Source of the DNA: Mobula birostris
Taxonomy: Eukaryota
Direction: 5' to 3'
Assembly (NCBI RefSeq): GCF_030028105.1
Contig: NC_092401.1
Location: 29,626,399-29,690,398 of the forward strand
Length of the DNA: 64,000 nucleotides
A program made the position numbers and the translations under genes. Each line of letters opens with the position of its first letter. Within the stretch, counting starts at the first letter, position 1. This document shows positions 225-62,096 of the stretch, piece by piece. The notes under the pieces were generated by a model. The model saw only the letters and a program-made list of their open reading frames with translations. It was not told the DNA's origin and made no database searches.

Positions 225-1397
225 AAATTGCTGACTATGTCAAGAAAACTGATGCATTTGATTACACAAAAGATAACTGGGATATGTATACAGAGTTAAT
301 TCAGCAATATTTTGAAGCAAATGGAATAGCTAATTAGAAACAAATGCCAATTTTACTGAATTTATTGGGTTTAAAGGCATTCAGTTTGTTTTGAAGTTTG
401 ACTGCTCCAACTAGACCAACAGGAATGAGATTTGCAGGCCAGGCAGCATCAACGGAAAAGAGTACAGTCGGTGTTTTGGGGTCCTGCCAAAGGATTTCGA
501 CCCGAAATGTCGACTGTACACTTTACCATAGATGCTGCCTTGCCTGCTGAGTTCCTCCAGCATTTTGTGTGTGTTGCTCGGATTTCCTGCGTCTGCAGAT
601 TTTCTCTTGTTTGAGAAATGAGCTTTGTTGAAATTGTAAAACTAATGCAAGAACACATGAAACCTAAAGCGTTCTGCAGTCAATAATGGTGTTGTTTCTA
701 TAAGTGGAATCAAAAGGAAGGCAGTCCATTTCAGCATATGTGGTTGAAAGGATGAGTTTGTCTGAGCATTAACTTAGAGATACACTAAGATCATTCAGTT
801 TGTGCAATCTTACGAGAAAGCGTTCTAAAACAGCTCCTAATGAAGCACATTGAATCACATTTAAAAGCAATTGAATCACTGTTTCAATGGAAATTGCAGA
901 CGGACCCACAATTGAGTTTCAGTTAGGAATGAAAGTGAGCATGAACTAAATTGCACCATCTAAACAGAAACCAGCCTGACCAAACAAATTATGTTACCAG
1001 TATGGCAGGGGCTTACATACATCAAACAAATGCAGATTTAAAGGTGAAACCTGCAGAGAATGCAGCAAATGACACAAAGAGCATGTTGGGCAGACGAAAA
1101 AATGGACTGCATGGCGAAGAGAAAAAGCTAGAAAGTCAAGCTGCAGTTTCTAAAAGAGCACTAATCTGCGTGCTATTGATGAAAAATCTGAATATGATGA
1201 GAAAAGGACAGGTCTGGGTACCCTTGATATTTACACTGTGAAAACTAATAATAGATGAGCAATATGGCTTGCACCAGAGATGAACGGCAAGTTAATTAAA
1301 ATGGAATTGGATACTGTCTCGGCTGTTTCAGTCATTCCACAAAATGAGTTTGAATGGTATTTCAGATACTGAACTGAAGCCTGCAGATATTCAACTA
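225..1397 (+). mobile_element. Degenerate Gypsy-type LTR retrotransposon gag-protease relic
   Basis: Manual translation with stops and frameshifts gives FDYTKDNWDMYTELIQQYFEANGI (gag), CYQYGRGLHTSNKCRFKGETCRECSK (decayed zinc knuckles, ~990-1070) and MELDTVSAVSVIP (decayed DTG protease motif, 1301-1340). Confidence 0.8.
435..613. repeat. Short hammerhead-family repeat, head-to-head pair, inserted in Gypsy gag
   Basis: 435-480 is a partial reverse complement of 481-560. Ends in the family tail gatgctgcc..ctgctgagttcctccagcattttgtgtgtgttg. The gag frame resumes at ~615. Confidence 0.75.
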
Positions 1398-7390: not shown

Positions 7391-9639
7391 ATTGGTCTTA
7401 TAAACAATGACAGAGCAGGCTATAGAAGGCCGGATGGCCTACTTTTACTCCTATTTCTTATATTCTAATCATGCAAACACATAATTAGTACAAATCCAGC
7501 AATGAAATGCATGTGGAGACAAGTTTATTCCCCTCCGTTGATGCTGACTGACCTGCCGAGTTCCTCCAGCACTGTTGCTTAACTTGAATCAACTGTTCTT
7601 GTACAACAGTGTTACAGTGAACTTCCTCACCTGCTCACACAGTCAGTGAATGGGGTGGAAGGTCAGCATTGGCACAGCACAATAACGAAATATCAGCCCA
7701 CTTCGGGCAACATCACCACCTCTGCTCACCGAGTATGGGTATTTCAACAGACTGATGCAACAAACAAGCATTCAAACTTCAGAGAAACAGCAGGGTGCAT
7801 TAGAAAATAGTTAAACTTAGCCTGGCATGACATCATCCACCTGAAAAACAGGAGTGTTACACTGCAAGGACACTAGAATCTACAATTCTTAATGCATTCA
7901 TTTCACAAGTTAATTCAGTGGTGAACTGATTCAGCGGGACTTAAACTTGCTGATTAACTTTGTGTTGTTAACCATTTTGCTGCCTAGATTGCAATATATA
8001 TGTTCATTTCTACCACACAACAAAAGAAATTTGATTCAAAGGAACTGATGCTGATAGCTCCTGCTTAAATTGTCTAATACCTCTGTTTTATTTGTTACCA
8101 GAGAAATACGATGAGCACAAAATTAACATTAAACATAGAACTGTACAGTGGAGTACAGCCCTTCGGTCCACAATGTTATGCTGACCTTTTAACCAACTTC
8201 AAAATCAATCTAACTCTTCCCTACCACATAGTCCTCCGTTTTCCTATCATCCATGTGCGTATCTAAGAGCCTATTAAATGCACCTAATGTATCTGCCTCT
8301 GGCAGCACGTTCTCTGCACCAACACAGAAAAGAGGAAAAATAGGACAGTACAGAACAGTATAGGCCTTTTGGCTAACAATATTGTACCAACCTTTTAACC
8401 TAGTCTAAAATCAATCTAACCCTTTCCTCCCAAATGATCCCTCATCTGCTGGCGGATACTTTCAGCACTGGTCTCAAGCTAAGCCAGTCCCTTAGCCCTT
8501 CTCACTCCCTTCTGATGGCTCAAAGTGTTAAACTTTAAGGAGGAGGTTTTTGATCCCTATCTTTGGAGCAGTACAGTATCAGATTTTGAGGACATTCAGT
8601 TGCGCAGGTACAGCAGCAGCTCCAGTAACCTGTTTCCATTAGGGCAGAATTAGCATTTGGCCATCATGTCTTTCCTTAACTCAAGCATGGCTGTTTTTTT
8701 TCAAGCAACACACACAAAATGCTGGAAGAGCTCAGCAGGCCAGTCAGCATCTATGCCCAGCCTGCTGAGTTACTCCAGAATTTTGTGCGTGTTGCTTGGA
8801 TTTCCGGCATCTGTAGATTTTCTCCTGTTTGTAATTTTTCTTCAACCCCATTCTCCTGCCTTCTCCCCAGAACCAGAACTCCCCTTTACCAATCAAGAAC
8901 CGATCAGGCTCTGCTTAAAATACACCAAATGAATGTGGCAATGAGTTCCATATTCACCACTATGGCAAATTAGGCCACTCCACTCAGCCCATCGATTCTG
9001 CTCCCTCCCCCATTCAATTAATATTGTTTTATTTTTATCCATACATACACCAAAATGGTATTTCATGAAGCGAGAACTGTCAGATAAAGCAGAGAAGATG
9101 GGGCTGAAAGGAAAAAGAATCCGCCATGATGAAATGGCAGAGCAGACTCGATGGGCCAAACTGCCTAATTCTGCTCCTATATCTTATGGACTTATAGAGG
9201 TGTCCAGTAACATTTACTACTTACGGAAGCACGTTGCAATGGTGCAAGTCTAATAAAAATCTAATATTTCATAACTTGCTTGTGATGTGATGCCTGTGTA
9301 GTTTGTTTTCATCAGAGCCGCTATAAATGATCTGTGCTGATTGAACTCTTTTCCTGTACACTGACCCAAAGCCCGAATCACCGAAGCTGTGATCACATAT
9401 TCCTTCACAGTGACAGGACTGTGTGATTAATCATTGCTGAGATCAAACTACAAGGAGACTTGATGGGGTGCGCAAGATGATAAGAGGCAAAGATGGAGTG
9501 GACAGCTAGAGAATTTGTCCCAATTAGAATATTATGTTCAGTTCCAGCTGACAGGATGATGAGAATAACTCAAATAACCATATGTTACAACAGCAGAACA
9601 GCATCTCTGAACCTAGAAATAGATGACAGAATGGCTTTC

Positions 9640-12064: not shown

Positions 12065-13858
12065 GATAGAAACATAGAAAACCTACAGCACAATACAGGC
12101 CCTTTGGCCCACAAAGCTGTGCCGAACATGTACTTACTTTAGAAATTACCTAGGGTTACCCATAGCCCTCTATTTTTCTAAGCTCCATGTACCTATCCAG
12201 GAGTCTCTTAAAATACGCTATCATATCCACCTCCACCACCGTCACCGGCAGCCCATTCCATGCACTCTTCACTCTCTGCATAAAAAACTCACCCCTGACA
12301 TCTCCTCTATGCCTACTTCCAAACACTTTAAAACTCTGCCCTCTGGTGTTAGCCATTTCAGCCCTGGGAAAAAGCCTCTGACTATCCACATGATCAATGC
12401 ATCTCATTATCTTATACACCCCTATCAGATCACCTCTCATTCTCCGTCACTCCAAGGAGAAAAGGCCGAATTCACTCAACCTGTTTTCATAAGGCATGCT
12501 CCCCAATCCAGGCACCATCCTTATAAATCTCCTCTGCACCCTTTCTATAGTTTCCACATCTTTCCTGTAGTGAGGTGACCAGAAATGAGCACAGTACTCC
12601 AATTGAGTTCTGACTAGGGTCCTATATAGCTGTAACATCAACTCTTGGCTCTTAAACCGTATCCCACGGTTGATGAAGGTCAATGCACCGTATGCTTTCT
12701 TAACCACAGAGTCAAACTGCGTAGCGGCTTTGAGTGTCCTATGGACTCGGACCCCAAGATCCCTCTGATCCTCCACACTGCCAAGAGTCTTACCATTAAT
12801 ACTATATTCTGCCATCATATTTGACCTACCAAAATTAACCACATCACACGTATCTGGGTTAAACTCCATCTGCCACTTCTCAGCCCAGTTTTGCATCCTA
12901 TCGATGTCCTGCTGTAACCTCTGACGGCCCTCCACACTATCCACAACATCCCAACCTTTGTTTCATCCGCAAATTTACTAACCCATCCCTCCACTTCCTC
13001 ATCTAGGTCATCTATAAAAATCACAAAAAGTAGGGATCACAGAACAGATCCCCGAGGCACACCACTGGTCACCGACCTCCATGCAGAATATGACCTATCT
13101 ACAACCACTCTGCATTCTGTGGGCAAGCCAGTTCTAGATCCACAAAGCAATGTCCCCTTGGATCCCATGCCTCCTTACTTTCTCAATAAGCCTTGCATGG
13201 GGTACCTTATCAAATGCCTTACTGAAATCCATATACACTACACCTACTGCTCTACCTTCATCAATCTGTTTAGTCACATCCTCAAAAAATTCAATCAGGC
13301 TCGTAAGGCCTTTGACAAAGCCATGCTGACTATTCCTAATCATATTATACCTCTCCAAATGTTCATAAATTCTGCCTCTCAGGATCTTTTCCATCAACTT
13401 ACCACCCACAGAAGTAAGGCTCACTGGTCTATAATATCCTGGGCTATCTGTATTCCCTTTCTTGAATAAGGGAACAGCATCTGCAAACCTCCAATCCTTC
13501 AGAACCTCTCCCGTCACCATTGATGATGCAAAGATCATTGCCAGAGTCTCAGCAATCTCTTCCCTCGCCATCCTCAGTAGCCTGGGGTACATATCATCCG
13601 GTCCTGGTGACCTATCCAATTTGATGCTTTCCAAAAGCTCCAGCACATCCTCTTTCTTAATGTCTATATGCTCGAGCTTTTCAGTCTGCTGCAAGTCAAA
13701 ACTACAATCACCAAGATCCTTTTCCGTAGTGAGTACTGAAGCAAAGTATTCATTAAGTATCTCTGCTGTCTCCTCTGGTTCCAGACACACTTTCCCACTG
13801 TCACACTTGATTGGTCCTATTCTCTCACGACTTATCCTTTTGCTCTTCACATACTTGC
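12065..13858 (-). mobile_element. CR1 LINE, 5'-truncated, moderately decayed
   Basis: Consecutive ORF2 pieces: YRPVSLTSVGGKLMEKI, YMDFSKAFDKVPH, KFADETK, LEYCAHFWSPHY, and a (ctatgttt) tail near 12066-12080. Confidence 0.92.
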
Positions 13859-14469: not shown

Positions 14470-15250
14470 TCGAGAGAGTTAAAGAGAAAGAGCGGGCAAG
14501 GGAAAAGGCTGTGAGAGAGATTATGGGATTTGTGAGCATATAATAGAGCAAAAATTAGTGAGAAGTTAGAGGATTTGGAAGCTTTTAAATACCAACAGAA
14601 GACAGTAAAAAAAAGCAATAAGTAAACTAGCCAATCACATTAAGGAGGACACCAAAGCTTTTTTTTTCTGATTTATAAAGGGTAAAATAGAGTCAAGGGT
14701 GGATAATGGGCTGCTGGGAAATCATGCACGATAAGAAGTAACAGGGGACAGAGAAATGGTGGATGACTTAATAGGATTTTGCATCAGTCCTTACTGTGGA
14801 AGACAACAGCAGAATTCCGCAAATTCAGTGAGTATAGTTGCTAATACTAAGGGGATGCTGCTTGGGAGGCTGAAAGGACTGAATGTAGTTAAGTCACCTA
14901 GGTCAGGTGGACCACACCCCAGGGACCTGAAAAAGGTAGTTGAATGAAATATTAGTAGTTTTCTATCAAGAATCAATAAATTCTAGAATAGTTCCGGAGG
15001 ATTGGAAAGTTGTAATTCTGCAAGAAGGGAGGGAGGTAAAAGTAGGGAAATTATAGGTCAGTTAGCCTGACTTCAGTGGTTGGGAATATGTTAGATCCCA
15101 TTATTAAGAATGTTTCGAGGTATTTGGAGGCACATGATAAAATAGGTCAATGTCAGCATGATTTCGTCAAGGGGAAATCTTGCCTGACAAAACAGTTGGA
15201 ATTCTTTAAGGAAATAACAGACAGGAAAGACAAGGAGAGTTAGTGGATGT
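14470..15250 (+). mobile_element. Decayed CR1 ORF2 fragment
   Basis: KSPRSGGPHPRDLK and aattataggtcagttagcctgacttcagtggttggg. Confidence 0.75.
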
Positions 15251-15254
15251 TGGC

Positions 15255-17065
15255 ATAGTGCCTTATAAAGTCTCAGCATTACATTCTTGCTTTTATATTT
15301 TAGTTCTCTCAAAATGAATGCAAACATTGTGTTTGCCGTTCTGAACACCAACTCAACATGTAACCTAACCTTTATGGAATCTTGCATGAGGACTCCCAAA
15401 TCCCTTTGTAACTTGGAGTTTTGAATTTTTGTCCTGTTTAGAAAATAATTGATGCTTTTATTCCTTCTACCAAAGTGCATGACAATACACTTCCAGACAC
15501 TATATTCCCATTTGCCACTTCTTTGTCCACTCTCTTAATCTGTCTATGTCTTTCTTCCTCAACACTATTTGGCCTCCACCTATCTTCGTATTGTCCACAA
15601 ACTTGGCCACAAAGCTATCAATTCTGTCACCCAAATTGTCAACAAACCACGTAAAAGAAGCGGTTCCAACACTTCGCACTCTTTGCCTCCTGCCATAGCA
15701 GCCAATGCATGCTAGAATCTTTCCTGTAAAAGCATGGACTCTTATCTTGTAAGCAGTCTCATGTGCGGCACCTTGTCAAAGGCTGCTGGAAATCCAAGTA
15801 CACCACATCCATTAATTCCCCTTTGTCTATCTAGCCTGTAACTTCCTCAAAGAATTCCAACAGATTTTTTAGACAAGGAAACAATGCTGACTTCAGCCTA
15901 TTTTATCATGTGCCTCCAAGTTCCCCGAAACCACATCCTTAACAATCTATTCCAACATCTTCCCAACCACTGAGGTCAGGCTAACTGGCCTATAATTTCC
16001 TTTCTTCTGCCTTTCTCTCTTCTTGACAAGTGATATTTGCAATTTTTCAGTCCTCTGGAACCATACCAGAATCTATTGATTCTTGAAAGATCATTACAAA
16101 TGCCTTCACAATCTCTTCAGCTAACCCTTTCAGAATGTTGGGGTGTAGACCGTCTGGTCAGGTACCTACCTTCAAACCCTTCATTTCCCAAGCACCTTCT
16201 CCCTTGTAATTGCAATTGCACTCACTTGTGCTCCCTGACAATCTCAAACTTCCAGCATACTGTTACTTTTTTCCACAGTGAAAGCTGATGCAAAATACTT
16301 ATTCAGTTCATCTGCCATTTCCTTGTCCCCCATTACTATATCTCCAGCATCATTTTCCAGCTGTCCAATATCTATTCATGCCTCTCTTTTACTCTTTATC
16401 TATCTGGAAAAAAAATCTTTCGATGTCCTCTTTGATATTATTGGCTAGCTTACCTTCATATTTTACCTTTTCCCCCCTAATGTCTTTTTTTAGTTGCCTG
16501 AATAGTTTTCTAAAGTTTCTCAATCCTCTAACTTCCCACTAATCTTTGCTCTATTGTATGCACTCTCTTTAGCTTTTATGTTGCCTTTGACTTCCCTTGT
16601 CAGACATGGTTGCTTCATCCTGCCTTTAGAAGACGTCTTCCTTTTTGGGATGTATATATCCTGCGCCTTCTGAATCGCTCCCAGAAACTCCAGCCCCTGC
16701 TGCTCTGCCGTTATTCCTGCCAGTGCCTCTTTCCAATTAACTTTGGCCAGTTCCTCTCTCATGCCTCTGTAATTCCCTTTACTCCACTGTAATACTGATA
16801 GATCTGACTTTAGCTTCTCCCTCTCAAACTGCAGGGTGAATTCTATCATATTATGATCACTGACTCCTAAAGGTTCCCTTATCTTAGCTCTCTAATCAAG
16901 TCTGGTTCATTAAACAACACCCAATCCACAATAGCTGATTCCCCAAGTGGACTCAACTACAAGCTGCTCTAAAAAGCAATCGCATAGGCGTTCTACAAGT
17001 TCTCTATCTTGGGATCCAGCACCAACTTGATTTTCTCAGTCTACCTCCATATTGAAATCCCCCCA
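15255..17065 (-). mobile_element. Decayed CR1 ORF2
   Basis: GNYRGMREELAKVNW and MHFGRRNK..QRDLGVLMQDS. Confidence 0.85.
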
Positions 17066-18529: not shown

Positions 18530-18800
18530 ACCTTCCACTTCTCTGTTGGTCCGCTCTCCTGTTAAGATTACTCTTTGTTTAGCCCTTTACCTCTTCCACC
18601 GAACCCCACCCAGCTTTACGTCATCCTCCTTGCCCCTCACCTACCACCTACCGAGCTTGTACTCCCCCAGCTCTCCCTATTTTGGCTTTTGCTCCCTTCC
18701 TTTCCAGTCCGATGAGGAGCTTCGGCCCGAAACGTCGACTGTTCATTATCATAGGTGATGCCTGATTTCCTGAGTCCCTCCAGCATTCTGCTCATGTTGG
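18530..18800 (+). repeat. Pyrimidine-rich repeat ending in a hammerhead-like motif and family tail
   Basis: cagtc-c(t)gatga-ggagcttcggccc-gaaac-gtc-gactg at 18705-18741, then gatgcctga..ctgagtccctccagcatt. Confidence 0.7.
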
Positions 18801-18884
18801 GCAAAATCTGCAAACCAATTTACAGAATTTGAGAAAAATGATGTAAACAAAATTTAGACACAGCAGTAGAGTTTTGCAGTTAAC

Positions 18885-24734: not shown

Positions 24735-25796
24735 AGACATAGAAAACCTACAGTACAATACAGGCCCTTCGGCCCACAGAGTTGTGCCGAACATGTCCCT
24801 ACCTTAGAAATTATTAGGCTTACCTATAGCCCTCTATTTTACTAAGCTCCATGTACCTATCTAAAAGTCTCTTAAAAGACCTTATCGTATCCGCCTCCAC
24901 CACCGTTGCCGGCAGCCCATTCCACGCACTCACCACTCTCTGAGTAAAAAACTTACCCCCTGACATCACCTCTGTACCTACTCCCCAGCACCTTAAACCT
25001 GTGTCCTCTTGTGGCAACTATTTCAGCCCTGAGAAAAGGCTCCTGACTATCCACACGATCAATGCCTCTCATCATCTTATACACCTCTATCAGGTCACCT
25101 CTCATCCTCCGTCGCTCCGAGGAGGAAAGGCCGAGTTCATTCAACCTATTCTCATAAGGCGTGCTCCCCAATCCAGGCAACATCCTTGTAACACACACAA
25201 AAAATGCTGGTGAACGCAGCAGGCCAGGCAGCATCTATAGGAAGAGGTACAGTGGATGTTTCGGGCTGAGACCCTTCGTCAGGACTGATCCTTGTAAATC
25301 TCCTCTGCACCCTTTCTATGGCTTCCACATCCTTCCTGTAGTGAGGTGACCAGAACTGAGCAGAGTACTCCAAGTGGGGTCTGACCAGTGTCCTATATAG
25401 CTGCAACATTACATCTCGGCTCCTAAATTCAATTTCACGATTGACGAAGGCCAATACACCGTATGCTTTCTTAACCACAGAGTCAACCTGCACAGCTGCT
25501 TTGAGCATCCTATGGACTCAGACCCCAAAATCCCTCTGATCCTCCACACTGCCAAGAGCTTTACCATTAGTACTATATTCTGCCATCGTATTTGACCTAC
25601 CAAAATGAACCACTTCACACTTATCTGGGTTGAACTCCATCTGCCGCTTCTCAGCCCGGTTTTGCATCCTATCAATGTCCCGCTGTAATCTCTGACAGCC
25701 CTCCACACTATCCACAACACCCTCAACCTTTGTGTCATCAGCAAATTTACTAACCCATCCCTCCACTTCCTCATCCAGGTCATTTATAAAAATCAC
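24735..25796 (-). mobile_element. Fairly young CR1 3' fragment inserted into a V-SINE and carrying a nested short element
   Basis: KFADDTKVEG, LVRPHLEYSAQFWSPHY, FFTQRVVSAWNGLP. Host SINE halves lie at ~24590-24730 and ~25840-25925. Confidence 0.92.
25192..25287 (-). mobile_element. 96-bp hammerhead-containing short retroelement with 10-bp target-site duplication
   Basis: TSD atccttgtaa at 25182-25191 and 25288-25297. Minus strand reads CAGTC CTGACGA A GGGTCTCAGCCC GAAAC ATC CACTG ... (TG)n tail. Confidence 0.85.
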
Positions 25797-27470: not shown

Positions 27471-28109
27471 TATGAGGTGCTGTTAGAGTTATTGGTTTAA
27501 CATGGAATTAAAAAAATAATTGAAGGAGAAAGAATATCTAAGGAGAGGGCAATTGGACAATCTGGATTACCGCTGGGAAAGTTCCTGCAAACTATTTTTG
27601 CTCAGCACAGAATGCTGGAGAAACTCAGCAGGTTAGGCAGCATCTATGGCTCATCTGCCTATCACTTCCCACTGGGTTCCCTCCTTCTTTTCCTTTCTCT
27701 TTCTACGCTCCTCTCCTGTCAGATTCCTTCCTCTCCTGCCCTTTACCTTTCCTACCCACTTGGCTTCACCTGTCACCTTCTAGCTTCCCCTCCCCCTACC
27801 TTTTCCTGATGAAGAGTCTTGGCCCACAACATCAACATTCATTTCCATAGATGCTGCCTGACACGAGTTCCTCCATCATTTTGTGTGTGTGTGTGTGTGT
27901 TGTTTTGGATTACGAGTAACTACAGAATCTTGTGTGATCAAGTATTTTTGTGTATTCTTTTGGCAGTGGGTATTCTTGGGCCAGCTTTTGCTGCCCTAGG
28001 GAGAGTGAATGGTAGCCACCTTCTTGAACGTCTTGTCTGTCTGGGGGGGAGGGGAGGTGGGAGCTCCGTCAGTGATCTTGTGCAGGGAGTGCATGGGTTT
28101 GGACTCTTC

Positions 28110-30104: not shown

Positions 30105-30890
30105 TCAACCTGTGCTAAATATACTAATGATTTGGCTTCTACAGCCATCTGTTGCAATGAATTCCACAGTGTCAGCACCCTGTGGCTAAAGAAATCCTTT
30201 CTAATCTCTGTTCTAAAGGGGCATCCCTCTATTCTGAGGTTGTCTGCTGATATCAGACTCCTTTCAATATTTAATAGTTTTCAATGAGATTCCCCCCCTT
30301 TATTCTAAACTCCAGTGAGTACAGATCCACAGCCATCAAATAATCCTAGTCCATTAACCCTTTCATTCCCAGGATAATTTTTGTGAACCTTGTCTGTCTA
30401 GAATGCCAGTACATCCTTTCTCGGATATAGGGCCCAAAACTGCTCTCAGTACTCCAGTTGCAGTCTGACCAATGCTTTATAAAGCTTCAGGATTACATTT
30501 TTGATTTTATATTCTGTTCCTCTCAAAATGAATGCTAGTGTTGCAATTGCCTTCCTTACCACTGACTCAACTTGCAAGTTAACCTTTAGGCAATCCTGTA
30601 TGAAGACCCCCAAAAACCTTGCAGCTCTGATCTCTGAATTTTCTCCCCCTTTAGAAAATACACCTTTATCTACCAAAGTGCATGACCATACACTTCCCTA
30701 CACTGTATTTCACTTTTTTGCCCATTCTCTTAATCTCTCTAAGTCCTTCTGCAGACTCCCTCTTCCACAACACTGCTTGCCCGTCTATCTATCTTCATAT
30801 CATCTGCAAACTTGGCAACAAAGCCATCAATGCCATCATCGGGATCGTTGACACATAATGTGAAAAGAAGTGGTCCTAGCACTGACTCCT
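30105..30890 (-). mobile_element. Decayed CR1
   Basis: [23 protein letters not shown] and LYKALVRLQLEY. Confidence 0.85.
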
Positions 30891-30941: not shown

Positions 30942-31040
30942 AGTCCTGATGAAGGGTCTCGGCCCAAAACGTCGGCCGTTTATTCCCCTCCATAGATGCT
31001 GTCTGACCTACTGAGCTCCTTCAGCTTTTTGTGTGTTGTT
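30942..31040 (+). repeat. Hammerhead-family short repeat just upstream of RNF11-like exon 2
   Basis: agtc-ctgatga-a-gggtctcggccc-aaaac-gtc, then the tail catagatgctgtctgacctactgagctcc..tgtgtgttg. Confidence 0.8.
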
Positions 31041-31086
31041 GGGTGAAACTCCAGGTTACCCGAGAAATTATTTCCACGTGTTTCAG

Positions 31087-39510: not shown

Positions 39511-40603
39511 TAGAAACATAGGAAATAGGTGCAGGAGTAGGCCATTCAGCCCTTCGAGCCTGCACCGCCATTTATTATGATCATGGCTGATCATCCAACT
39601 CAGAACCCCGCCCCAGCCTTCCCTCCATACCCCCTGACCCCTGTAGCCACAAGGGCCATATCTAACTCCCTCTTAAATATAGCAAATGAACTGGCCTCAA
39701 CTGCTTCCTGTGGCAGAGAATTCCACAGATTCACCACTCTCTGTGTGAAGAAGTTTTTCCTAATCTCGGTCCTAAAAGGCTTCCCCTCTATCCTCAAACT
39801 GTGGCCCCTCGTTCTGGACTTCCCCAACATCGGGAACAATCTTCCTGCATCTAGCCTGTCCAATCCCTTTAGGATCTTATACGTTTCAATCAGATCCCCC
39901 CTCAATCTTCTAAATTCCAACGAGTACAAGTCCAGTTCATCCAGTCTTTCTTCATATGAAAGTCCTGCCATCCCAGGAATCAATCTGGTGAACCTTCTTT
40001 GTACTCCCTCTATGGCAAGGATGTCTTTCCTCAGATTAGGGGACCAAAACTGCACACAATACTCCAGGTGTGGTCTCACCAAGGCCTTGTACAACTGCAT
40101 TAGTACCTCCCTGCTCCTGTACTCGAATCCTCTCACTGTAAATGCCAGCATACCATTTGCCTTATTCACTGCCTGCTGTACCTGCATGCCCACTTTCAAT
40201 GACCGGTGTATAATGACACCCAGGTCTTGTTGCACCTCCCCTTTTCCTAATCGGCCACCATTCAGATAATAATCTGTTTTCCTATTTTTGCCACCAAAGT
40301 GGATAACTTCACATTTATCCACATTAAATTGCATCTGCCATGAATTTGCCCACTCACCCAACCTATCCAAGTCACCCTGCATCCTCTTAGCATCCTCCTC
40401 ACAGCTAACACTGCCACCCAGCTTCGTGTCATCCGCAAACTTGGAGATGCTGCATTTAGTTCCCTCATCCAAGTCATTAATATATATTGTAAACAACTGG
40501 GGTCCCAGCACTGAGCCTTGCGGTACCCCACTAGTCACCGCCTGCCATTCTGAAAAGGTCCCGTTTATTCCCACTCTTTGCTTCCTGTCTGCTAACCAAC
40601 TCT
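39511..40603 (-). mobile_element. Young 5'-truncated CR1 with an uninterrupted RT C-terminal reading frame
   Basis: 324-codon stop-free ORF 39600-40574 ([50 protein letters not shown]), followed by 3' UTR and a ctatgtttcta tail. Confidence 0.95.
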
Positions 40604-43358: not shown

Positions 43359-43471
43359 AAACAAGCAACACACACACACACAAAATGCTAGAGGAACTCA
43401 GCCGGCCAGGCAGCATCTGTGGGGGAAAGAAATATAGTCAACGTTTCGGGCTAAAACCATTAGGTAGGACT
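43359..43471 (-). repeat. Hammerhead-family short element inserted in CR1
   Basis: (CA)n-aaatgctagaggaactcagc..agtcaacgtttcgggct..aggact, with gact on both sides. The host CR1 resumes at ctaagattgg. Confidence 0.7.
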
Positions 43472-47294: not shown

Positions 47295-48215
47295 CTGATT
47301 TATTTCCCTCTCAACCACATTCTCCTGCCGTGTCCTCATAACCTTTGATGCTCTTTCCGCTTTACATATATTCAGTGATTTGGGCTTCCACAGCTGTCTG
47401 TGGCAATGAATTCCACAGATTCATCATCCTGTAAAGAAACTCCTCCACATCTGTTCTAAAGGGGAGTCCTTTTATTCGGAGTCTATGCCGCTTCTAGATC
47501 TCGCCCACGATTGGAAACATCCTCTCACCATCCAACTTACAAATTTGATAGATTTAATGAGATTCCTCTCCAGTTATTCTGAACTCCAACGAGTACAGGC
47601 CCAGAGCTAAATGCTCCTTGTATGTCAACCCTTTGCTGTTGCTGCGTGCTGCGATCACCACCTGGATACTAACTAATTATTTCTTGAACAGATTCTCTAC
47701 AATGCCAGCACATCTTAAGCAGCCCAAAGCTGCTCATAATGCTGTAAGTGCAGATTGAATAATGCCTTATAAAGCCTCAGCATTACATCCTTGTTTTTAT
47801 ATACTAGTCCTCTCGAAATTAATGCTAACATTGCATTTGCCTTCCTTACCACCAACTTAACCTGCAAGTTAACCTTCAGGGAATCTTGCACAAGGACTCC
47901 CAAGTCCCTTTGCACTTATCCCCATTTAGAATGATAGTCTACACTTTTATTCCTTCTACCAAAGTGCATGATCACACACCATGTTCAATCCACTACTTCT
48001 TTGCCCATTCTCCCAACACATCTCGGTCCCTCTGCAGATTCCCTGCCTTCTCAACTCTCCACCCATCTTCATATTATCCACATAGTTGACCACAAAGCCA
48101 TCAATTTCAACATCCAATTCATTGATATATGACATGAAAAGAAGCAGCCCTAACTCCAACCTAGTCACTGGCAGCTAATCAGAAAAGGCCCCCTTTATTC
48201 CCTCTCTTTGCCTCT
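47295..48215 (-). mobile_element. Decayed CR1 3' half
   Basis: QRDLGVLVQDSLKVNLQV..MLRLYKAL. Confidence 0.8.
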
Positions 48216-56582: not shown

Positions 56583-58965
56583 TATATCAAACTTGATAGT
56601 CAGAAAAACTAGTTCCTCTGGTGACAAAATTCAGGATAACTGGGTATAATTAGATCTAGGCTATCAAGAGAGTGAAATTTAGAAAACAAATCAAATTCTT
56701 CAATTTATTCCCCAAACAACTCAAATGATCTCCTCAAAACCATTTCTACAAATATCTGTCAAGTATTTGGGTTAAAGAGTAAGGGTTTCAAGGCATTTGT
56801 TTTTCTAAAAATATAGCAGCTGTAAAACAATGGACAAGATATGAACAATTCAGGGCAATAAAAAAACTGCAGAGAGTCCTCAAACTCCAAGGGATTACCT
56901 CAGTTTAAAACTTAATAGGAAAGAAACATACAAGCCAGCTCAAAACTCTTAAGGTTTTCCTTTGTTCTTTTTTCATAAAAAGTACTTATGCCTATTCTTT
57001 CCATTAGGAAACTCTGATTGATGCATTACTTATCTATTTTCTGACCGTACACAGGGTGCCACAGCTGTTGCTCTCCATTTTGGGACATCTCAAAACACTT
57101 TAGAATTCTTTTGAAAACACAGTAACCATTGCAAAGTAGAAGACACAGAAGTCAATTTGCATACAGCAAGCCCCCTCAAACCACAAGTGAGCTAATTTGA
57201 TTTAGTAACAGTGCCTAAAGGGCAAATATTAAGAAACCACAAAACTGCAACTATCCTAATAAGGTCACCAACTTCTAAATTAATGTCTGATCTGACAAAA
57301 GGTTACTGATCTGAAATATTGATTAGTGCTCTCTCCAGAGATGCCAAATACTCCCCTCATTGTCAGTTTTATATCACTTACAACCTTTTCACTCGAGTAC
57401 CATTTATTCCATCATGTATATGTCAACTGTTCGAAACACCCATCCAGCTTTCTTCCCATAGCTCTTCAAACTTCACAATTATATAAAACCATAAAACACT
57501 GGAAACACTATAGGCAAGAGAGACAGGTAGGTGCAGATAGATCTAGAAAAAGTTTGCAGGTGGGAGGTAGTTGAAATTGATTGGCACTCAACATTCCTCC
57601 CCACCCAATTCCATCTGCCCAGCACCTGCTTCTCATCTGGCTCTACTCTCCAGCCTCTGTTCCACCCCTCATTTCCATAACTCTTGCTATTTTCCTTCAA
57701 TATGCTCAGTCCTGTTGCTGGAGCCCCACTTAAAATAGTGACTATTCATTTGCCCCCACAGATACTGTCTGACCTATTGAGTTCTCCAGTTGTTTAATTT
57801 TTGTTTCAGATTCCAGCATCTGCAGTTTTGTGTCTCCTTCACTGTTCTATCTATATCCTTCATAATTTTGAACATTTCTATTAAATGTCCCCTGAACCTC
57901 GGCTTGAAAAGAAAACAATCTGCACAACTCTTCTGCCTAATTGGTATATCTTACCTTTACCATTCCAGTACTTGGAACTACAGAACACTTTAGCTGGGGT
58001 TTACTTTTTTTTTTTACATTATGCTATTAATATAACTAATAGAAAATTTAAAAATGTTCTGATAATAGATCACTGATCTAACACATAATATTTCACTCTA
58101 CAATGTCTGATACAAGCATTTCCAGCATTTTGATTAACACCTGCAGTATTCTTCAAAAACATAAATCAACTTGTCCTGGGATCATTCTGGTTTGTGCAGG
58201 TGAAGTCCGAGTATTCTCCATTCACACCACTTTGGTTGAAGTACTGTATATACTTTTATCTTTTCTAAATCTATTTGAATGTATATAACAAAATCTCCAG
58301 GAGCACAGAACTGAAATGCCAGTCTGGATCACATATTACATAACTTCCCAGCTCCTGCTGGGAGCTACAATTAACACAATGCCCATCCTTTACTCACTAG
58401 GAAATATTCAAATGGCTTTCCACGATAAATGACCCCAAGAGACTGCAGATGCTGTAATCTGGAGCAATAAACAGCCTGCTGGAGGAACTCAGCAGATCAG
58501 GCATCATTTGGGCGGACAGGGAGGGGGGAGAAAGTAATGAGACACTTATGCTGCTCAGCATGCTGAGCTCCCCCAGCAAAATGAAGACACAAGAGACCAC
58601 AGATGCAGCGCCTTTGTGGAGTTCCTCCAGCAGGTTGTTGCTCCTCTGTATGTCAGTTCCTGACAATTGTGGCTAATTCCAACACCTTGGTTCATTTATA
58701 CATCACCATTTTGACAGCGACTGGCTTTAGTGAGAGGGGACCGGCTTTGGATTTACACATTTGACGACCAACAGTGTGTGTCTGTGTGCGGTGGGAGGAG
58801 AGGTGGTAGGGGTAAGTTTTCCAGGTTTTTCTGTAAAGGCAGGCGGTGTCTCCTCTGTGACTCCAACACCAGGGAAGTCAACCTGTGGGCACGGTTATCA
58901 CTGGCATCTTCACCCCAGCCCCACTCATTACCGAGGCAAATCAGAGCCAAATCTCTCGCTCTTAC

Positions 58966-59780: not shown

Positions 59781-60504
59781 GTAACTGGCTGAAGCCCCGC
59801 ACAGAATGTGCGTCTCCTGGACCCCGGCCTTCTGTCCGAGGCGGGCGGGAACCCTGATCATAAACGGTCTACGGACAGAGTGTTTTAATAAATCACCATT
59901 TATTGTCACTGACTTGTATAATATGAAATTTATTGTTTGTCGCAGCAGTGTAGTGCAACGATATAAAATTGTACAACGCACACACAATACTGCAGGCATT
60001 CATTGGGCTAGATAATGTCTGTAGACAGTTGGAGTGTCGGTTGGGATACTTTAACAGAAAAGGTATAATGTGAACCGTTCTGAAATCTGATAGTGTTGAA
60101 GTTGTTCCTTCATCATTCAATGTGGGTCTTCGGGCTCCTGTACCTCCTCTCTAATGATAGTAATGAGAAGAAAGTGTGCCTCTGACGGTATCCTTGGTGA
60201 TTGAGAGGGTTGAACCTGTTAAAAAATGGTTTGCTGTTTTCTATAAAAGCTGCCTGACCTGCTTAGTTCCTCCAGTATTTTGTGTGTTTCTTGGATTTCC
60301 AGCATTTGCAGATTTTCTTGTATTCGTGGTTATATGACAAATAAAGTGGCCACTTTATTAGATATATCTGCTCATTATATATATTTAATAAGCCAATTAT
60401 GTGGCAGCAACTCATGGTGTATAATTCTGACTCTTAAGAAAGTACTGCCCTGACATTCTTTTATTTAATAAAATACCTTGGTTGTTCGTTAGATTTTTCC
60501 CAAG

Positions 60505-61235: not shown

Positions 61236-62096
61236 TATATTAGCCTTTATAGACTTATTTAAGTTTAGGAGTTAAGATGTCTTATGATTCTGCACCTGGA
61301 GTACCTAAGACATGGGAGCAGGAGAGGCCACTTGACCTATCGAGTCTGCTCTGTAATTCCATCATGGCTGATTTATTAGCCCTCTCAGCTCCATTCTCCT
61401 GCCTTCTCCCTGTAACCTTTGACACCCTGACTAACCAAGAACCAGTCAACCCCTGCATTAAATATACTAAATGACTTGGCCTCCACAGCCATCTCCACAA
61501 CCACCCTCTGGCTAAAGAAATTCCCCTTCCATCTCTGTTTTAAACAGACATCCCTCTATTCTGAGGTTGTGCCTTCTGGTCCTCGACTCCCCAAATATAG
61601 GAACATCCACTCCACATCCACTCTATCTTTGTCTTTCAATATTTCAATATTCAAAGTTCAAAGTAAAATTTATTATCAGAGTACATACATGTCATATATA
61701 TACTTGTTGAACAGGTTTCTGGGATACACAAACCACCCCATCAGGCACCAATAATTATCCATGGTCAAAGTCACTTAGTCATCTTTCCCACTCTGTGTTT
61801 GGTCTGAACGACAACTGAACCTCTTGACCATTTCTGCATGCTTTTTTGAATTGAGTTGCTGCCACATGATAGACTTATTAAATGTTTGCATTAATGAGCA
61901 GGTATACCGAATAAAGTGGCCTCTGAGTGTATTTGCCATATAACCACAAATACAACAAAATCTGCAAATGCTGGAAATCCAGGAAACAAACAAAATACTA
62001 GAGGAACTGAGCAGGTCAGGCAGCTTTTATGGAAAACAGCAAACCATTTTTTAAAAACTCTTTTTCCATAGATGCTGTCTGACCTGCTGAGTTCGG

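Follow-up and report, generated by a model that had tools for sequence, protein, structure and literature searches.

A short repeat with a minimal hammerhead motif as a truncated terminus from a Penelope-like element of probable Neptune type

The copy at 25250 and its relatives in the window

Many decayed LINE copies, which we take to be of the CR1 type, form the families of repeats that are largest in the window, i.e. the whole stretch of 64,000 nucleotides that was analysed. They lie at 12151-13309, 24815-25796, 2015-2844 and 15021-15877, with further copies at 30133-30890, 39692-40507 and 47382-48154. The copy under study was inserted into a LINE RT remnant, presumably also of CR1 type, and comprises the following features, the boundaries of which were drawn from the sequence.

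25192..25287, minus strand: pLTR end, 5'-truncated, from a Penelope-like element (PLE) of Neptune type, 96 nt
25250..25287, minus strand: minimal type I hammerhead motif, damaged (from sequence, folds and the published consensus)
25283-25287, minus strand: stem I of the motif, 5' strand
25276-25282, minus strand: CUGACGA box
25275, minus strand: extra A
25263-25274, minus strand: stem II and its loop
25259-25262, minus strand: GAAA box
25255-25258, minus strand: C-A-U-C, including G16.2>A
25250-25254, minus strand: stem I, 3' strand, including G1.1>C
25288..25297, minus strand: target-site duplication, 5' copy, 10 nt (from sequence and the single site in a sibling LINE)
25182..25191, minus strand: target-site duplication, 3' copy, 10 nt (from sequence)

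The first base of the insertion is the start of stem I of the hammerhead and its other end is the tailless (+92) position; over its length it shares 90% identity with the natural long copy L063 between positions -4 and +92, as counted from C3. The corresponding empty site is present in a sibling LINE copy (12282-12816), where the target occurs once, at 12517-12526, in an overlap of repeat families. It had been proposed that the 25250 copy keeps both core boxes and carries two substitutions around the cleavage site. Both boxes are kept, but there are three changes: besides G16.2>A and G1.1>C, loop II has a substitution. They leave four non-pairs in the modelled dimer, and at 16.2 and 1.1 the copy departs from the motif. 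Because G16.2>A and G1.1>C disrupt helix III as well as helix I at its closing pair, the copy, a decayed insertion, is predicted to be dead.

All six copies of the original prediction were recovered at the same coordinates and on the same strands. That none of them is perfect also held, as the core pattern had no match in the window at zero mismatches; at one mismatch or fewer it had three, versus 0.14 expected. A profile HMM built from the six copies matched 20 times in the window and not at all in the reversed window. The repeat turned out to be longer than had been described, about 100-135 nt, of which 65-100 nt are 3' of the motif. CUGANGA is lost in the copies at 481 and 43436 and GAAA in that at 27806. 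The other copies and fragments are listed here.

434..620, both strands: head-to-head pair made up of a minus arm at 434-480 and a plus arm at ~474-620 (profile HMM, alignment); the plus arm is the copy at 481-516, with tail
7523-7573, 58467-58509, 60229-60318, 61947-62044 and 62060-62094: further 3' fragments
8700..8831, both strands: head-to-head pair of 3' ends without the motif
18701..18808, plus strand: older-subfamily copy (profile HMM), with a pyrimidine-rich stretch upstream
27605..27900, both strands: older-subfamily head-to-head pair, minus arm 27605-27649 and plus arm from ~27655, which includes 3' UTR and the damaged motif at 27806
30942..31054, plus strand: older-subfamily copy, starting at -4
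43372..43471, minus strand: older-subfamily copy that starts at -4 and is without CUGANGA
57710..57790, plus strand: seventh motif-bearing copy, heavily decayed and previously overlooked (profile HMM, E 5.7e-7)

Remnants of a PLE ORF were searched for in the window by tblastn, and none was found.

The hammerhead motif

Minimal hammerheads (min-HHRs) in the pLTRs of metazoan PLEs were described by Cervera and De la Pena (2014; PMC4209133). The 38-nt motif of the repeat fits the consensus published there letter for letter, in line with its original designation as a minimal type I hammerhead motif: a U-rich stretch, CUGANGAH, G..C, and GAAA N palindrome N U H, with C15.2-G16.2 and a short helix I. 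The stems and the ACGU palindrome of helix III are as had been proposed, and the additional nucleotide after A9, before 10.1, is also that of the consensus. The published motifs likewise are mostly dispersed single motifs from truncated PLEs, with some opposite-strand pairs. They differ from the present case in that stem II is short here (4 bp) and in that no chondrichthyan is among 56 motifs in Fig. S3 of that paper.

CUGANGA, GAAA and the NUH triplet were the majority letters in 126 young and in 77 older copies. An iterated HMM drifted, and its last round served only for viewing older copies. A structural descriptor (helices I and II, the extra nucleotide 9/10.1, palindromic 15.2-16.2) matched 120 times in 919 kb of sequence enriched for the family and never in the reversed sequence. 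In the modelled dimer of L063 and L002 no non-pairs occur. Inside the motif the young and older subfamilies differ only at N7 and at the 11.1 wobble (G-C to G-U), and a third subfamily differs in loop II; the adjoining stretch from +33 to +45 diverges between subfamilies. The dominant young subfamily has G10.1-U11.1 instead of the usual G-C, a pair that is also found in several published PLE motifs (PMC4209133). Among exact copies G10.1-U11.1 outnumbers G10.1-C11.1 about 4:1, and it marks nearly all loci with a long ORF. The U11.1 variant is a change of the lineage and not only CpG decay after insertion.

The covariation called for by the original prediction was not obtained within the family: in 203 copies there were no compensatory double changes, and the changes look like CpG decay. 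In stem I, U at -1 was accompanied by A at +28 in 11 of 100 among the matches listed, which equals the background (12/126). Other families in the genome have the same core with an unrelated stem II (1,356 matches versus 29 in the control). Their stem II pairs, although pairing was absent from the search pattern, and in the commonest of them it measures 7-8 bp in 8 of 14 copies. At least three such further minimal-hammerhead families can be distinguished, represented by L198, L199, L208, L214, L215, L217, L219, L221, L223 and L225 (at about 1501), by L209 and L222, and by L201 and L202. One of the further families resembles the pufferfish motif of the published alignment (PMC4209133), and some copies (L207, L214) seem to begin just before C3.

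An Rfam scan returned no hammerhead family at E<=5. No hit is to be expected for a motif that lacks helix III or loop contacts, but Rfam lends it no support. The monomer is predicted to fold into an inactive hairpin in which the core pairs with the cleavage triplet. For the active dimer -11.5 and -16.7 kcal/mol were calculated versus dimer MFEs of -30.3 and -34.1, and the z-scores of the folds were not significant. Related minimal motifs cleave weakly as dimers (PMC4209133), and the hammerhead of PAc from Anolis requires protein for cleavage (PMC11167929). Hammerhead activity of the present motif is predicted to be restricted to the dimer, and probably to the dimer assisted by the protein of the element.

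The parent element and its abundance

A Penelope origin had been suggested, along with a search for full-length copies joined to an ORF with RT and GIY-YIG, and this link was found. Several of 30 loci with the exact motif have up to ~1 kb of upstream sequence in common, coding for an RT thumb, a cysteine linker and a GIY-YIG domain (PF01541, E 1.4e-4). A protein search of the genome yielded 76,651 candidates with open frames of up to 1,038 aa. At locus L059 the order is motif, 1038-aa frame, motif, inside a duplication of ~14 nt. RT and, at the C terminus, GIY-YIG are thus present in a single ORF, the full-ORF scores (RVT_1 E 5.9e-5; GIY-YIG E 0.008) both being below the curated Pfam cut-offs, and a CX4CX2C Zn-linker lies between RT and EN (protein P0001). 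The ORF has 774 homologues, with PF00078 in most among the matches listed, and ~400 copies hold the ORF start. The motif is situated 3' of the ORF in 19 of 20 long-ORF loci. In the partial tandem at locus L065 a distance of 3.5 kb separates two motifs; there, as at L059, both pLTRs contain the motif. The same tandem shows that the element body begins with the 'tail'. As copies run upstream into the PLE ORF and the motif flanks this ORF, the short repeat represents a pLTR end, truncated on its 5' side, of an autonomous PLE of Neptune type.

Two loci deserve a remark. The copy with the longest ORF is devoid of ~275 nt of 3' UTR and has its second hammerhead 20 nt past the stop codon (L059:7432-7452). 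On the minus strand of L015, in the reoriented locus, an exon-like frame that to us resembles a RAD54-family helicase and a second fragment that presumably resembles an LTR-retrotransposon pol occupy frames 2194-2592 and 724-1131.

pLTR tandems, inverted copies, an optional tail and target duplications were all observed, as for EN+ PLEs. With the Neptune EN+ PLEs described by Craig et al. (2021; PMC8557442) the element has in common one ORF with RT, CX2-5CxxC linker and C-terminal GIY-YIG, as well as pLTRs, partial tandems, inverted truncated copies and a 30-40-nt tail at one end. The PLE clades reported from vertebrates are Neptune and Poseidon (bioRxiv 10.64898/2026.07.22.740005). The assignment to the Neptune clade follows from the linker and from clade occurrence in vertebrates, i.e. 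from features and not from a tree, and the linker is shared by Nematis. The best relative of the protein is from Chiloscyllium punctatum (70% identity), which agrees with the elasmobranch-like host that had been surmised.

The high abundance that had been claimed is borne out by at least 34,000 exact copies genome-wide. The exact 31-nt core of the original prediction occurs 7,114 times in the 4.0-Gb genome and the variant 31-nt core with U at stem II position 11.1 occurs 27,273 times, both with zero occurrences in controls; a 35-nt stretch downstream of the motif occurs 42,187 times (control, 0). In 144 kb of stretches that were unselected for the repeat, the window included, 20 motif-bearing copies were present. 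Crude extrapolation of this figure gives a total of roughly 5e5 copies genome-wide. The copy number far exceeds the ~4,000 of the coelacanth and the ~9,000 of Xenopus given in PMC4209133.

Insertion of the copies and its explanation

The ends of inserted copies were studied in the first 100 matches on one contig to a pattern 3' of the cleavage site, so that 5' ends were disregarded in the selection. Because of internal deletions, five were excluded when the 5' ends were tallied. In the remaining 95 copies, 24 ends were at -5..-1 and 11 at -40..-6 (p 2e-14), 18 at 0..+35 and 42 further upstream. When only the 40 non-inverted copies were considered, 6 ends were at -5..-1 versus 5 at -40..-6 (p 0.001). 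Genome-wide, the base before -4 is a non-T in 2,274 copies versus the templated T in 24,756, and the 30 non-T copies that were inspected all had true ends there. Near the cleavage site (+26..+30) only 2 of the 95 copies ended, and cleaved RNA as the template was rejected. That 5' ends accumulate on the 5' strand of stem I instead of the cleavage site indicates that inserted copies derive from uncleaved RNA. A transcription start is the simplest cause of this accumulation. The context at about -5 is, in our estimation, initiator-like. Two observations speak against it, however. In a set of 30 copies that include the ORF start, only 3 have their 5' end at -8..-5, and 13 reach further upstream. 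A clear cap signature was not seen before 100 copies starting at -4 (~34 G, 26 A and 40 C by hand count): an extra G derived from a cap, present in 6 of 8 copies of a first sample, was not upheld in these 100 further copies. Spliced or 5'-transduced templates were likewise dismissed, as there is no constant exon and the duplications adjoin the 5' ends.

The 3' ends had two modes, one near +95 and one near +130 (counted from C3), and 51 of 100 copies were tailed. In head-to-head pairs exactly one arm had the 35-nt tail in 40 of 42 (p 2e-10), and 33 of the 42 were flanked by a duplication of at least 8 nt, versus 0.76 in shuffles. The pairs are single events in which two RT starts are used in a coordinated way. 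In the head-to-head junctions of L186 and L187 (at about 1480-1505) stem I complementarity connects the inverted arm, which stops close to the cleavage site, with the -4 arm. That one inverted end carries a tail is known qualitatively (PMC8557442, PMC3846280); neither a count of this asymmetry nor a report of the stem I boundary was found in the literature consulted. In Anolis carolinensis the Poseidon element PAc (Frangieh et al. 2024; PMC11167929) similarly has two internal RT starts that define the tail, extends both target strands and uses uncut RNA as a template, which is described as its dominant substrate. Its ORF starts inside the hammerhead, whereas the ATG here is likely to be ~155-170 nt downstream of C3, and in vitro its start site is alike on both strands, in contrast to the one arm of each type in the present pairs.

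These observations are probably accounted for by a 3' pLTR end of a Neptune-type PLE with a minimal type I hammerhead motif that is predicted to cut only as a dimer, likely aided by protein, and of which copies are inserted from RNA uncut at the hammerhead. The endonuclease of the element would nick the target, and RT would initiate at +95 or +130 within the RNA and copy back through the uncut motif. Many templates would begin at about -5, most simply by transcription initiation, and would give rise to the 'SINE-like' copies of 100-135 nt, while priming on both target strands would produce the head-to-head pairs. It is rather improbable that in the same element the motif no longer cleaves in this lineage and, of hammerhead-shaped ancestry, has been retained as a signal of another kind (protein-binding, promoter or RNA-pairing). 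Such a loss would agree with the uncut state of inserted copies, with folds that favour inactive hairpins, with G10.1-U11.1 in the most successful subfamily, with the absence of within-family covariation and with the finding that hammerhead mutants of PAc still insert in vitro (PMC11167929). Yet the catalytic letters are all in the majority in young as well as older copies, next to a stretch that drifts, core and pairing stem II are kept in other families of the genome, and related minimal motifs do cleave, weakly as dimers or with protein (PMC4209133, PMC11167929). That the 100-135-nt copies form a non-autonomous element in their own right, of retrozyme or SINE-like kind, which has a separate master copy and is amplified via circular RNA, is very unlikely and largely refuted. 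Many copies do share a 5' boundary near -4, and pLTR-derived vertebrate retrozymes, those of one chondrichthyan among them, have been reported (Li et al. 2026; bioRxiv 10.64898/2026.07.22.740005); these too have a type I hammerhead and a pLTR origin, and like them the short copies here lack coding capacity. They are head-to-tail tandem repeats, however, whereas the present copies are solo or head-to-head: no head-to-tail array of the short unit occurred among 100 copies, 5' ends are continuous up to full length, subfamily letters are common to short and long copies, the copies show no permutation at the cleavage site, and neither a tRNA gene in the window nor an Rfam match at the copies was detected. 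A tRNA-derived SINE was also rejected, as there is no tRNA-like or other Pol III head and the upstream sequence is PLE 3' UTR. The retrozyme-like alternative of the earlier description, like an independent short element, was accordingly not supported: the copies are 5'-truncated PLE ends that grade into full length.

The ends at -5..-1 could also result from an endonuclease cut during resolution or from a splice-acceptor-like site upstream of stem I, with no transcription start there, which we regard as unlikely, if less so than a motif that has ceased to cleave. From -30 to -2 before C3 (in L002 and similar copies), in the young as in the older subfamilies, what we read as a branch-point-like sequence is followed by a pyrimidine tract and by AG immediately before stem I; the cap-G signal is not strong. 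The intron of Drosophila virilis Penelope ends at helix I, and an AG just before stem I is present in many published motifs as well (PMC4209133). Against a cut or splice site argue the proximity of the target duplication to the 5' end (about -6..+8 nt) in many short copies, the lack of a constant upstream exon and the absence of a spliced junction at this site among 100 copies. A further and rather doubtful reading is that the hammerhead is the extreme 5' end of the element RNA and works uncut: the ACGU palindrome and a swapped helix I would pair two transcripts, and a protein dimer would prime both target strands from +130 and +95. If true, this would explain both the single tailed arm in 40 of 42 pairs and the arms that stop at stem I.

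Ribozyme-bearing PLE termini are already published (PMC4209133), and the repeat family may already be catalogued in Repbase or Dfam. In the literature covered, which included few subscription papers, no description of the motif in sharks or rays was found. With the present explanation a very common elasmobranch-type repeat is re-labelled as PLE ends, and minimal hammerheads are extended, at high copy number, to an elasmobranch-type lineage. The role of hammerheads in PLEs is considered an open question (PMC8557442). What is added to it is an insertion record made in vivo, in tens of thousands of young copies, of templates that were uncut and often began at stem I and of two RT starts used in coordination, which is of modest mechanistic interest. 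The near-intact ORFs of ~1,000 aa make in vitro work on this element feasible.
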